Positions 2,655 to 61,439 of a DNA stretch of 64,000 nucleotides are shown piece by piece. How positions within the stretch are numbered: the stretch's first letter is position 1; every line of letters begins with the position of its first letter. The translations under genes and the position numbers were made by a program. The notes under the pieces were generated by a model. That model did no database searches and was not told the origin of the DNA. It was given only the letters and a program-made list of their open reading frames with translations. Where the stretch lies: assembly GCA_000165345.1 (NCBI GenBank), contig CM000434.1, positions 1,152,001-1,216,000 of the forward strand, in the 5' to 3' direction.

Positions 2655-3100
2655 TTTGTTAGGCTGAATTGAATCCTCTTTCTTTTGATGTTATTTGAGA
2701 TAAATGTATTTGACTTTTCTCCTCCTTTACTATTTTTCTTTAGATTTCAATTCACTTTCCTTTAGAACTTTAGCTTATCATTATTCAATTTCTGACTTAT
2801 TTCTACTTATTTTTGTAGAATTTTCAATTTAAAAATTCTACAACTGATCGTACTATTTCTCTACTAACTTTTTCTACTGAAATTCTAAACTTATTTTCAA
2901 TTCTTCCTTTTAATTCCTGGAAAAAATTTTCCCTTTGACTATTTTTGTCAAAATTCTACATTTTTTACGCACCTGTGTCTTTTTGCATGTTTACCATTTT
3001 TTTCATCCACATGCTCGAATACGATTTTGCATGTATACCGGTATGCAAATTTTTTTTAAGAATTAAAATAATTTTTTGTAATACCGGTACCGCCCCACAT

Positions 3101-3118
3101 TTGGGCGGGAATTTCCCG
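3101..3118. promoter_or_regulatory. Tandem/overlapping E2F-like boxes (TTGGGCGGGAATTTCCCG) in the divergent subtilisin/PRP19 promoter
   Basis: GGCGGGAA followed by its reverse complement TTCCCG. It sits between genes on opposite strands. TACCGGTA palindromes lie nearby at 3083..3092 and 3034..3045. Confidence 0.5.
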
Positions 3119-3472
3119 AGTCAAAAATAATATAGAAAAGATTGGAGATCAAAAAGTGGAACAAAAGGAAAATTTTGAAAAAAAACAAAACGTTGAATAG
3201 CAAGTATAAAGATTTGGGAAGGAAAAGAAAGGTTGATTAAAAGGAAAGGGAGAAAAGTTTAGAGAATTTGAGCAGGAGTTTTTTTTGTTGTTATTGGGAA
3301 AACAGTTTGTTTTAGCAGAAGTTAAGATTTTGTTACCATAAAGTACTATTTTAAGGATTTAAGAACTTAACAAATATTGCGTTTATTATTGAAAGCTTGA
3401 AATCTTAGCCAAGCTATACAAAATAAGTTGCTTTTTTTTCTTTTTTTCCAGGTTTCTATAAACTTGATAATT

Positions 3473-14009: not shown

Positions 14010-14659
14010 ACTATTAAAGATTATTTATTCACATTGTGCCTTTAATAAATCTGTTTGGCGCCAACAGCCAGCATATTTTCGAATAATCAAAGAGCGATAT
14101 CTTTTGAAAAAAAATTTATTTTCACACCAAAATGGTAAATTGCCTCGTTTAAAAATATACACAAATTAATACGTATTATTCGATATCCAACAATAGACAA
14201 ACACTGATATGTTCCTCAAAATCACAAGAAATAATACGTCATATAAGTTTCCCGCGTCTCTCCAATCTTGGATATGTATAATTAGACTATAATGGACGAT
14301 ACAGGATAACTATGGACCCAGTATAACTGCCTAGGTCGCACTATACGTGTTATTATCTGACATTTTAATGAGACATAACATTAAATCGTCGGTCGAAAAA
14401 TAATCCTGTTGGGTAACCATCAGGTTACAAAAGGTCGATTTAAATTTTTCCGAGGAATTTGAGACGAGGAGTAAGAGTTCACTACTTAACGCTTAAATAT
14501 AACAGCTACAAGTGTAATATTATGTTCTTTGACCAAAGACTTTCTTCAGAGAAACGGAATATATATATTTTCAACAATTGAGCTTCAACAACTGAATATC
14601 TAAGTTTATTGTTTTAATATATTAAATAGTATTGTTAATATTTATAAAGAGTTGAAAAA

Positions 14660-38565: not shown

Positions 38566-38824
38566 TGCATATTCACACAATGAATATCTTCATCATTTCA
38601 TTTCCTTCAACTCATTTCATATAAACATCGCTTCCTGAATTTTTCTTATTCACTTATCTTGGGCTGAATTATTTGATTAAATCTTATATATAATTGATTT
38701 ATATTTAACTCTGACTTTGGCGCCAAAATGGTCCGGTATTAATAGAAATTACAAAGAATATTAAAATTACCAAGGTAGACAAAATTTGCTAGTACAAAAA
38801 GTTTGACTAAAAAGAGAGAGGAAA

Positions 38825-51160: not shown

Positions 51161-52483
51161 ATGAAAACAACCATAGGAAGAGTTATATTTCTGGCAATCT
51201 GTTCTCGTCTATTGTGTATTTTCATTTCATTCTTGACAAATGATTTGTTTTCTACCATAAGAAATACAGGAATCCTTCATTTATACTTAGACAATAACCA
51301 AAATTCACAAAATACTGTCACTTGGAAGCTATTTAAATCCTTTATTAATTGGGATGGAGAATATTATTTAAGAATATCATACTATAATGATTATGAATAT
51401 GAACATCAACATGCTTTTTTACCTCTATATCCTATATTAGTTAATCAAATTTCAAAGATTGTTTCTGGTATTAATAAAACAAGTATTTTAGTTAATATGA
51501 TTGTTGGAACAATTATTAGTAATTTGGCATTTGTATTAGCTTCTGTTGGTCTATATCTATTTCAATGTGAATTATTTTATAAGATGAAAATAAAAAATGT
51601 TGTTTTTCCAGGTATATCTACTCTTTTCTTTCTTTTCCCAAGCTCAAACATTTTCAATTCTTCTATGTATACTGAAAGTTTATATTCTTGTTTTAATTTT
51701 TGGGGAGCATTTCTAATTCTTAAAGCCGAGTCCAATTCTCATAAGTTTGGTTTCTTTTCAATTAAGAATTTTATATATTTAATTTTATCAGTACTTTGTA
51801 TGTCAGTAACATGTGGAATAAGATCTAATGGAATCTTAAATTCTATTCCACTCTTTTTCTATTTTGTATCAACTAGTCCAAGCATTAAAAATATCTTAAA
51901 ATTCATATTACATTGGTCTATTGCCTTTATTATGTTCATTTCTACTATTTTTCCTTTTTTGGCTTATCTAATATATTCTTATTTTAGATATTGTGTATAT
52001 ATTTCAGAATCTCGTCCTTGGTGTAAATCTTTAATCCCAAATATTTATTCTTTTGTTCAAGATGAATACTGGAGTAATGGTATATTTAACTATTGGAGAA
52101 TTGAAAAATTTGATAAATTTATTCTTATTATTCCTTTTATACTTGTAACAATTTACTCTATAAAAATTTTCTTTATTAAAAGATCAAAAAAAGATAAAAA
52201 TAATGTATTTTCTATTATTTATCAAATACTTGATCATTTTCAACATTGTTATTCAGTTTTTGGATATTTTTTTCAAATTTACTTTCTTCTTATTTCCATT
52301 CTACTTTATGGTTATGTTGAAGTAATTATCAGATTATTTAACTGTATTCCATTATACTTTACTCTTATGGGTTATTTTTTTCAAAATCAAAATCCAAAAC
52401 TTTCCAATCTTCTTTTAATTTACCAAATATTTACCTTTATTTTTGGTAGTATTTGGTTTCCAAACTTTCTTCCCTGGACTTAA
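51161..52483 (+). CDS. PIGV: GPI mannosyltransferase 2 (PIG-V/Gpi18)-like multi-pass membrane protein
   Basis: FINWDGEYYLRISYYNDYEYEHQHAFLPLYPILV matches the PIG-V motif [31 protein letters not shown]. About 8 predicted TM helices. ATG at 51161. Confidence 0.7.
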   Translation: MKTTIGRVIFLAICSRLLCIFISFLTNDLFSTIRNTGILHLYLDNNQNSQNTVTWKLFKSFINWDGEYYLRISYYNDYEYEHQHAFLPLYPILVNQISKIVSGINKTSILVNMIVGTIISNLAFVLASVGLYLFQCELFYKMKIKNVVFPGISTLFFLFPSSNIFNSSMYTESLYSCFNFWGAFLILKAESNSHKFGFFSIKNFIYLILSVLCMSVTCGIRSNGILNSIPLFFYFVSTSPSIKNILKFILHWSIAFIMFISTIFPFLAYLIYSYFRYCVYISESRPWCKSLIPNIYSFVQDEYWSNGIFNYWRIEKFDKFILIIPFILVTIYSIKIFFIKRSKKDKNNVFSIIYQILDHFQHCYSVFGYFFQIYFLLISILLYGYVEVIIRLFNCIPLYFTLMGYFFQNQNPKLSNLLLIYQIFTFIFGSIWFPNFLPWT

Positions 52484-52738
52484 TTTTGTTTAAATTCATA
52501 TTAATCTTTAAAAAAATACATTTATAAGGTATAAAGGACAAATTTTTCTATTGTTTTTTCTTCTCAAAAAAAAAAAAAATTTGTATGGATCTTGAAATAT
52601 TTTCTGCATATACCGGTGTTAAGGTATCTAACATGCAAATGGCGCCAAACTTTTTATAGCCTTTGAAAAATTAATAAAAAAGAAAAAAAAAATTTTAAGA
52701 AAATAAATCTTGATATCTAATATTCAATATTGAACTAG

Positions 52739-53168
52739 ATGTCTAGTAAACAGATTAAACTTTCTTCTAATGTTTCTGCTGTAAGTTTCTATTTTGAGTA
52801 AAAAATATTAGTATTGATTAATTAATTTAATTTAATTGTTTTCTTTAAATTTTCTATAGTTGAGATTTATTCAAGCAGCTCAAACTAAAGTAAAACATGA
52901 GGAACTAAAGAAGAAACAAGAAAAAACACTTGGATGGTACTTACCAGGTTTTGAAGAGACAAAAACTAGAGGATCAGAACTTGCAAATAAAAATCTTCAA
53001 CTTGAAAATATGTATATTTTAACTAGAAAATCCTTTAATTCTTATAATCAATTAGTAGAGAAACAAAATTCGAATATAATTTCAAGAAGAAAACATTATG
53101 AAAGAGTTAAAGATGAAGAAAGAGAAGAAAAGATTATACAAAATATGTTTAAAAAACATCAAAAATAG
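52739..53168 (+). CDS. Small basic protein (about 116 aa), two exons: 52739..52780 and 52860..53168, with an intron at 52781..52859
   Basis: Track ORF 52860..53168 begins at TTG directly after a TTTCTATAG acceptor, and its first in-frame ATG is not until M51. An upstream ATG (52739) opens a 14-codon exon (MSSKQIKLSSNVSA) ending in a GTAAGT donor, in frame (phase 0). A GGCGCCAAA box lies about 95 nt upstream. It is K/E-rich with a TLGWYLPG motif. Function unknown. Confidence 0.55.

Positions 53169-53303: not shown

Positions 53304-61439
<8,136 letters not shown>

Follow-up and report, generated by a model that had tools for sequence, protein, structure and literature searches.

The segment at positions 52739..53168 on the + strand of the 64,000-nt window analysed here (GenBank assembly GCA_000165345.1, contig CM000434.1, positions 1,152,001 to 1,216,000) is very probably a two-exon gene on chromosome 6 of Cryptosporidium parvum for the nuclear RNA-exosome cofactor MPP6, as judged from its sequence. 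The coding span of 430 nt is made up of an exon 1 of 42 nt (52739..52780; ATG at 52739-52741 plus 13 codons; MSSKQIKLSSNVSA), a GT-AG spliceosomal intron (52781..52859) and an exon 2 (52860..53168) that runs from Leu15 to Lys116 and ends with the stop codon TAG at 53166-53168. The intron lies in phase 0, has a length of 79 nt and a GC content of 14%, and reads GTAAGT...TTTCTATAG with the donor hexamer at 52781-52786. For C. parvum introns the reported genome-wide means are 99 nt and 22% GC (PMC4637869). The spliced product is a K/E-rich protein of 116 aa with a pI of 9.9, in which QIKLSSNVSALR is the peptide across the junction of the two exons. The codons for LRFIQ (52860-52874), for Trp40 (52935-52937) and for the anchor block RKSFNSYN (53025-53048) all fall within exon 2. 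The window itself is AT-rich and carries long intron-free ORFs, and the 6.4 kb around the gene differ at 3 positions from the C. parvum chromosome 6 sequences CP029785.1, CP141123.1 and CP044417.1.

When the segment is read without splicing, the exon-1 frame runs through six intron codons (MSSKQIKLSSNVSAVSFYFE) and then meets a stop. Intron removal is needed for an open frame, and both the GT donor and the AG acceptor are present with extended consensus. The trinucleotide TAG at 52857-52859 is the acceptor AG and an in-frame stop at once, and for this reason the mechanical ORF list starts at TTG 52860. The earliest in-frame ATG of this exon-2 ORF is its codon 51 (53010-53012), corresponding to Met65 of the spliced protein. 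The initial annotation, made from the letters of the window and the ORF list, had described precisely this arrangement: an ATG at 52739 opening a 14-codon exon, a phase-0 GTAAGT donor at 52781, an intron of 79 nt, a basic K/E-rich product of roughly 116 aa, and a listed ORF that begins at a TTG directly after an acceptor and has its first ATG at codon 51. Every one of these coordinates is correct and equals the public annotation, and the predicted product is identical to the annotated protein.

Both the gene model and the protein are thus already known from public annotation. The spliced protein corresponds residue for residue to a protein (P0006) found in two public annotations, named “M-phase phosphoprotein 6” in C. 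hominis (CUV06937.1 / PPS97872.1) and “hypothetical protein CPHLJ_6g5105” in C. parvum. Seven public C. parvum / C. hominis assemblies carry the 430-nt gene with the same 116-aa product, and in four of the seven the DNA of the gene is identical to the window. Other annotated orthologues are those of C. tyzzeri (TRY51011.1), C. meleagridis, C. ubiquitum (cubi_02640), C. canis, C. bovis and C. xiaoi. The UniRef name of the C. xiaoi orthologue (KAK6590358.1, P0014), “Flagellar FliJ protein”, seems to have been transferred spuriously. Our literature search found no paper linking Cryptosporidium with MPP6 and none mentioning cgd6_5105. The re-annotation of C. parvum and C. hominis UdeA01 drew in general on full-length cDNA and RNA-seq, and with it intron-containing genes rose from 4.3% to 10.8% of all genes (PMC4637869); its supplement lists the neighbours cgd6_5100 and cgd6_5110, and the MPP6 gene is absent from it.

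How much weight the splice signals carry by themselves was evaluated on a single sequence. With 16 copies found vs 22 expected, GTAAGT shows no enrichment in the window, so the hexamer on its own is no proof of a donor. The upstream region of one species was then shuffled 20,000 times with its composition preserved, and each shuffle was scored for a frame that opens with ATG and stops at a GTAAGT placed 40-250 nt ahead of the acceptor; 193 of the 20,000 shuffles (~1%) contained one. The arrangement in a single sequence is therefore improbable yet possible by chance, and the decisive evidence is comparative.

Loci orthologous to this one were compared from C. hominis, C. ubiquitum, C. canis, C. 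bovis, the gastric C. serpentis and two GC-richer, Cryptosporidium-like Logan genomes, SRR31860986 (L004 3001-3417) and SRR31861040 (L005 61-486). Coding GC is 46-54% in the two Logan genomes vs 26% here. A phase-0 intron with a GTAAGT donor, placed directly before LRFIQ, is common to all Cryptosporidium lineages examined. Its length is 79 nt in both C. parvum and C. hominis, 67 nt in C. ubiquitum, 50 nt in C. canis, 141 nt in C. bovis, 55 nt in C. serpentis, and 66 and 75 nt in the two Logan genomes. The lengths thus leave differing remainders modulo 3, and intron sequence is kept at the splice sites only. In the two Logan genomes the introns are stop-free and both are multiples of three, and this explains why prokaryote-style gene callers read through them. 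The resulting read-through proteins (P0002 and P0004) show an unconserved insert between ...VSA and LRFIQ....

Strong purifying selection on exon 1 is indicated by the substitution pattern. Against C. ubiquitum, exon 1 has a dN/dS of 0.046 (6 synonymous and 2 non-synonymous differences), while the values are 0.024 for codons 1-64 and 0.042 for the whole coding sequence. Between C. parvum and C. hominis the coding sequence shows 5 synonymous and 0 non-synonymous differences, and the intron shows 3 substitutions. Among eight Cryptosporidium sequences, conservation of the protein is highest in residues 1-64.

These observations bear directly on the alternative that no splicing takes place, in which case the product would be the exon-2 ORF starting at TTG 52860 or at Met65 (53010), and the upstream ATG and GTAAGT would be coincidental. 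Mechanical gene callers do report the exon-2 ORF only, in the Logan proteins P0012 and P0015 as well as here, and the shuffles show that an ATG-to-GTAAGT arrangement can arise by chance. We nevertheless regard this alternative as very improbable. The exon-1 peptide is conserved, and so are the intron position and its GTAAGT in lineages that do not share the intron sequence. Species differ in their Leu15 codon (TTG, TTA or CTG), and C. canis has Ile where C. parvum has Met65, so neither position is a conserved start. Starts at TTG or at the internal Met were accordingly rejected on codon and residue conservation. Independent support for the splice comes from the protein family, as exon 1 adds ~10 bits of signal against the MPP6 profile of Pfam (PF10175), and the fragment starting at Met65, which leaves out the best-conserved residues, gave no Pfam match at all.

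The acceptor is placed differently in the public models of the gastric species. In C. serpentis (L013 3001-3421), C. muris (CMU_021590) and C. andersoni (cand_018930) these models use an acceptor 15 nt downstream. The annotated C. serpentis intron (L013 3070-3139) removes LRFIQ, the second half of the N-terminal MPP6 motif, whereas LRFIQ stays in frame if the upstream TATTTAG acceptor is used (intron 3070-3124, 55 nt). The LRFIQ-keeping version matches PF10175 weakly, with 16 bits, and the annotated protein does not match it. The shifted acceptor could be either an annotation error shared by the three models or an in-frame alternative 3′ splice site.

By its profile match, the 116-aa product is a member of the Pfam family PF10175. 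The spliced protein scores 32.5 bits (E 1.3e-7) against a gathering cut-off of 29.4, a margin that is small at about 3 bits, and the match spans residues 7-111 of the protein and positions 2-112 of the 133 in the profile. Exon 2 alone reaches 22.6 bits and stays below the cut-off. The Cryptosporidium orthologues P0001, P0003 and P0005 score 30.0-30.9 bits. We also searched the sequences of the PDB, both with the single protein and with a profile of eight Cryptosporidium orthologues. The sole significant matches were the human MPP6 chains of nuclear exosome complexes (6h25_K, 6d6q_L and 6d6r), which are weak (E 0.009-0.03) and aligned over residues 3-105; no yeast Mpp6 chain was matched in either search. 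A wider profile search of 1.84 billion representative proteins yielded very few matches. Nearly the whole profile was covered by four proteins from organisms other than Cryptosporidium, including one of the dinoflagellate Alexandrium, and with 44-68 bits against PF10175 these four are clear members of the family. The one further match, which is also the weakest (P0021), is a repetitive 450-aa protein without an MPP6 match.

The initial annotation had compared the stretch TLGWYLPG to the LDWMYQGP motif of Cir_N/CWC25 and had guessed at a nuclear or spliceosomal role. A Cir_N/CWC25-like, spliceosome-associated protein would share some general traits with the product, since that family too consists of small K/E-rich nuclear proteins with a short Trp-containing N-terminal motif; beyond this composition, the reading draws on the likeness of the two motifs. 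Against it, hmmscan at E<=10 returned no PF10197 (Cir_N) for either the spliced protein or exon 2 alone, and found PF10175 above its cut-off for the spliced protein. The Trp motif belongs to the MPP6 alignment, in which WYLPG falls column for column on the middle motif of human MPP6 and of the four other MPP6 proteins; the stretch is the conserved MPP6 middle motif. Furthermore, every significant match among solved structures and every full-length remote match is an MPP6 protein. The Cir_N/CWC25 identity was rejected at the sequence level for want of a Pfam match, and we give it almost no credence. MPP6 is a nuclear RNA-exosome cofactor and not a spliceosome component. For this reason the nuclear half of the earlier guess fits the MPP6 assignment, while the spliceosomal half falls away with the missing Cir_N match.

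To describe the motifs of the protein we aligned the Cryptosporidium sequences with the four non-Cryptosporidium MPP6 proteins and human MPP6. Invariant in this alignment are S9, F17, Q19, W40, E46, R70, S72, N77 and E81, most of which fall into three blocks. The first, at the N-terminus, has the pattern L-S-x-N-(V/I/L)-x-x-(L/M)-(R/K)-F-(I/M)-Q and holds S9, F17 and Q19. The second is W-(Y/V/I/C)-(L/V/I/M), with W40 invariant, followed by P-G except in human; the counterparts of the middle motif are HWYLDLP in human and KWVVPGLE, QWIVPGFE and QWVIPGFE in other MPP6 proteins. The third, R-(K/R/M)-S-(F/Y)-x-x-(F/Y)-N-x-x-(V/I)-E, holds R70, S72, N77 and E81, and within it R70-K71-S72-F73-N74-S75 and N77 do not vary among eight Cryptosporidium sequences.

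The N-terminal MPP6 motif is split by the intron (KLSSNVSA|LRFIQ), and 8 of the 13 residues of KLSSNVSALRFIQ come from exon 1. The protein segment K7-LSSNVSALRFIQ-19 aligns with R8-LSKNLLRMKFMQ-20 of human MPP6, so that the N-terminal Mtr4-recruitment motif is present. Exon 1 aligns with human residues 5-15, and in the HMMER alignment residues 3-17 correspond to human 5-18 and R70/F73 to human R74/F77, i.e., the arginine anchor and the Phe that follows it are present as well. In human MPP6 the two RecA domains of MTR4 are contacted by residues 5-35, chiefly by 5-18 (PMC9410898), and yeast Mpp6 no longer recruits Mtr4 once its conserved N-terminal 22 residues are deleted (PMC5553935). Human R74/F77 and yeast R112/F115 bind Rrp40/EXOSC3, and their mutation abolishes binding to the exosome core (PMC5603729); the arginine is called the “arginine anchor” (PMC5553935). 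The conservation hotspots of yeast Mpp6 are residues 11-21 at the N-terminus and 111-115 around the anchor R112/F115, as described with the Exo-9 and Exo-12-Mpp6 structures (PMC5603729; PMC5553935). As our profile searches missed the yeast PDB chains, the correspondence to yeast Mpp6 rests on the published human-yeast equivalences. The C-terminal tail is K/R-rich (RRKHYERVK...FKKHQK) and much shorter than that of yeast or human, where the basic C-terminal region binds RNA.

From the conservation of the blocks and the equivalence of their residues with those of human and yeast, we infer docking on Rrp40 and recruitment of Mtr4. The middle block with R70/F73, together with the Trp40 region, would dock the protein on the exosome cap subunit Rrp40/EXOSC3, and the N-terminal motif KLSSNVSALRFIQ would recruit the Mtr4/MTR4 helicase. 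The helicase and the exosome core would in this way be bridged, and RNA, e.g., rRNA precursors and nuclear surveillance targets, would be threaded into the exosome channel. The K/R-rich C-terminus may add RNA binding. Since exon 1 supplies most of the predicted helicase-recruiting motif, gene models without it, or with the shifted acceptor of the gastric species, would describe a half-functional protein.

A related possibility is that the product belongs to the MPP6 family but has diverged so far as to have lost one canonical partner (e.g., no Mtr4 recruitment) or to have taken on another role. The identity of about 25% to characterised MPP6 proteins, the marginal Pfam score and the short C-terminus would fit such a loss. 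On the other hand, nothing in the protein is conserved more strongly within the genus than its two partner-binding motifs, and both retain the residues found critical in yeast and human, which makes a lost partner quite unlikely.

An AlphaFold2 monomer, predicted from a four-sequence alignment, consists of two long helices with a mean pLDDT of 76.5 and a pTM of 0.35. These helices conflict with the structures of complexes, where the anchor block forms a strand. The model is uninformative on binding; output of this kind is usual for short linear-motif proteins that are intrinsically disordered.

Upstream of the MPP6 gene lies the ORF for a PIG-V GPI mannosyltransferase (51161-52483, + strand, 440 aa), and downstream a convergent ORF of 2,711 aa (53304-61439, - strand). 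The latter contains a G/R/E low-complexity tract (e.g. ERGGGGERGGGERERRAGAG) and a DSDSDS run. Its orthologues are annotated with very different lengths (2,476-2,897 aa) across C. parvum / C. hominis assemblies, and those of C. ubiquitum and C. canis have PHD-like zf-HC5HC2H domains.

Older public models raise the question of whether the PIG-V gene extends into this one, with exon 2 or the entire small gene as its 3′ exon. Public databases hold such chimeras: CAD98327.1 (P0008; 436 aa, C. parvum chromosome 6) joins a truncated PIG-V to MPP6 exon 2, and OLQ16527.1/PPA65519.1 (P0007; 444 aa, C. hominis) has PIG-V residues 1-328 followed by the complete MPP6 protein. Owing to their MPP6 sequence, the chimeras share the 90%-identity cluster of MPP6. 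The two genes also lie on the same (+) strand, 255 nt apart. However, the 440-aa PIG-V ORF has its own stop codon and covers PF04188 from end to end (profile positions 4-443 of 443), while the chimeras lose conserved C-terminal PIG-V sequence. The two genes are separated by a conserved promoter-like element, and the newer C. parvum, C. hominis, C. ubiquitum and C. bovis annotations that we compared have them as two separate genes; in the C. canis record the MPP6 gene is called and no PIG-V gene is. As the PIG-V ORF is complete relative to its profile and the newer annotations keep the genes apart, a fusion was rejected, and we consider it extremely improbable. In CP141123.1 (L009 1423-2582) the PIG-V protein is annotated with 386 aa, not 440 aa.

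The promoter-like element in the 255-nt gap after the PIG-V gene spans 52632..52649 on the + strand. It consists of CATGCA (52632-52637) followed by an E2F-type box, TGGCGCCA / GGCGCCAAA, at 52640-52649, which together give ACATGCAAATGGCGCCAAAC. The initial annotation had placed a box about 95 nt before the ATG, in agreement with GGCGCCAAA at 52641-52649, 98 nt upstream of the ATG as measured from the first base of the box. GGCGCCAAA occurs 4 times in the window vs 0.02 expected. Further exact copies of the E2F-type box are found at 14054-14062 and, as the perfect palindrome TTTGGCGCCAAA, at 38716-38727. Each of the five other species with sufficient flanking sequence (C. hominis, C. ubiquitum, C. 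canis, C. bovis and one more) has a GGCGCC box 89-159 nt upstream of the ATG, and CATGCA is visible beside it in four of these five; the C. bovis stretch examined ended short of its box. Both TGGCGCCA (E2F) and TGCAT (ApiAP2) are the most over-represented motifs known from upstream regions of C. parvum (PMC3734150), and E2F motifs dominate open-chromatin peaks (bioRxiv 10.1101/2025.01.17.633476). We therefore infer that the CATGCA + TGGCGCCA element is a putative promoter that may drive the MPP6 gene. Transcription would then probably start downstream of it, the element being situated about 90-100 nt upstream of the ATG.

The same setting could be read as that of a dicistronic PIG-V-MPP6 transcript with MPP6 as its downstream cistron: the two genes are co-oriented, the 255 nt that separate them hold a conserved E2F-type box, and both were fused in older annotations. 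In C. parvum 201 polycistrons have been described, with an E2F motif in most inter-cistron regions (bioRxiv 10.1101/2025.01.17.633476). We consider a dicistron unlikely.

Taken together, the finding of a two-exon MPP6 gene matters little beyond correct bookkeeping. It does show that a tool-free reading of the raw sequence recovered a short exon 1 that prokaryote-style callers and early annotations had missed. It would also imply that the MPP6 bridge linking the nuclear exosome to the Mtr4 helicase has been retained in Cryptosporidium although its genome is reduced.

Compared with its orthologues in the genus, the protein shows no substantive difference, although several of them are still named “hypothetical” or “uncharacterized”. 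It is identical in C. parvum and C. hominis and shares 66-99% identity with the other species. The two-exon structure is the same at every locus whose DNA was compared, and these loci share the neighbours SGT1, PIG-V, MPP6 and the large convergent gene.

With human MPHOSPH6 (6H25, 6D6Q, 6D6R) the Cryptosporidium protein has in common the N-terminal LSxN..(L/M)(R/K)F(I/M)Q, the W-Y-L middle motif and the anchor block R-x-S-F-x-x-(F/Y)-N-x-x-V-E, and both proteins are small, basic and K/E-rich. They differ in that their identity is about 25%, that the Cryptosporidium protein has a three-residue deletion after the FIQ motif, and that the spacers between the motifs are not the same. Human MPHOSPH6 has about 160 aa (162-166 aa in the solved constructs) as opposed to 116 aa, because the Cryptosporidium C-terminal tail is much shorter. 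With yeast Mpp6 (186 aa) the protein shares the layout of two hotspots, here K7-I18 and R70-F73; the yeast protein differs in having its middle region much farther from the N-terminus and in its long basic C-terminal domain.
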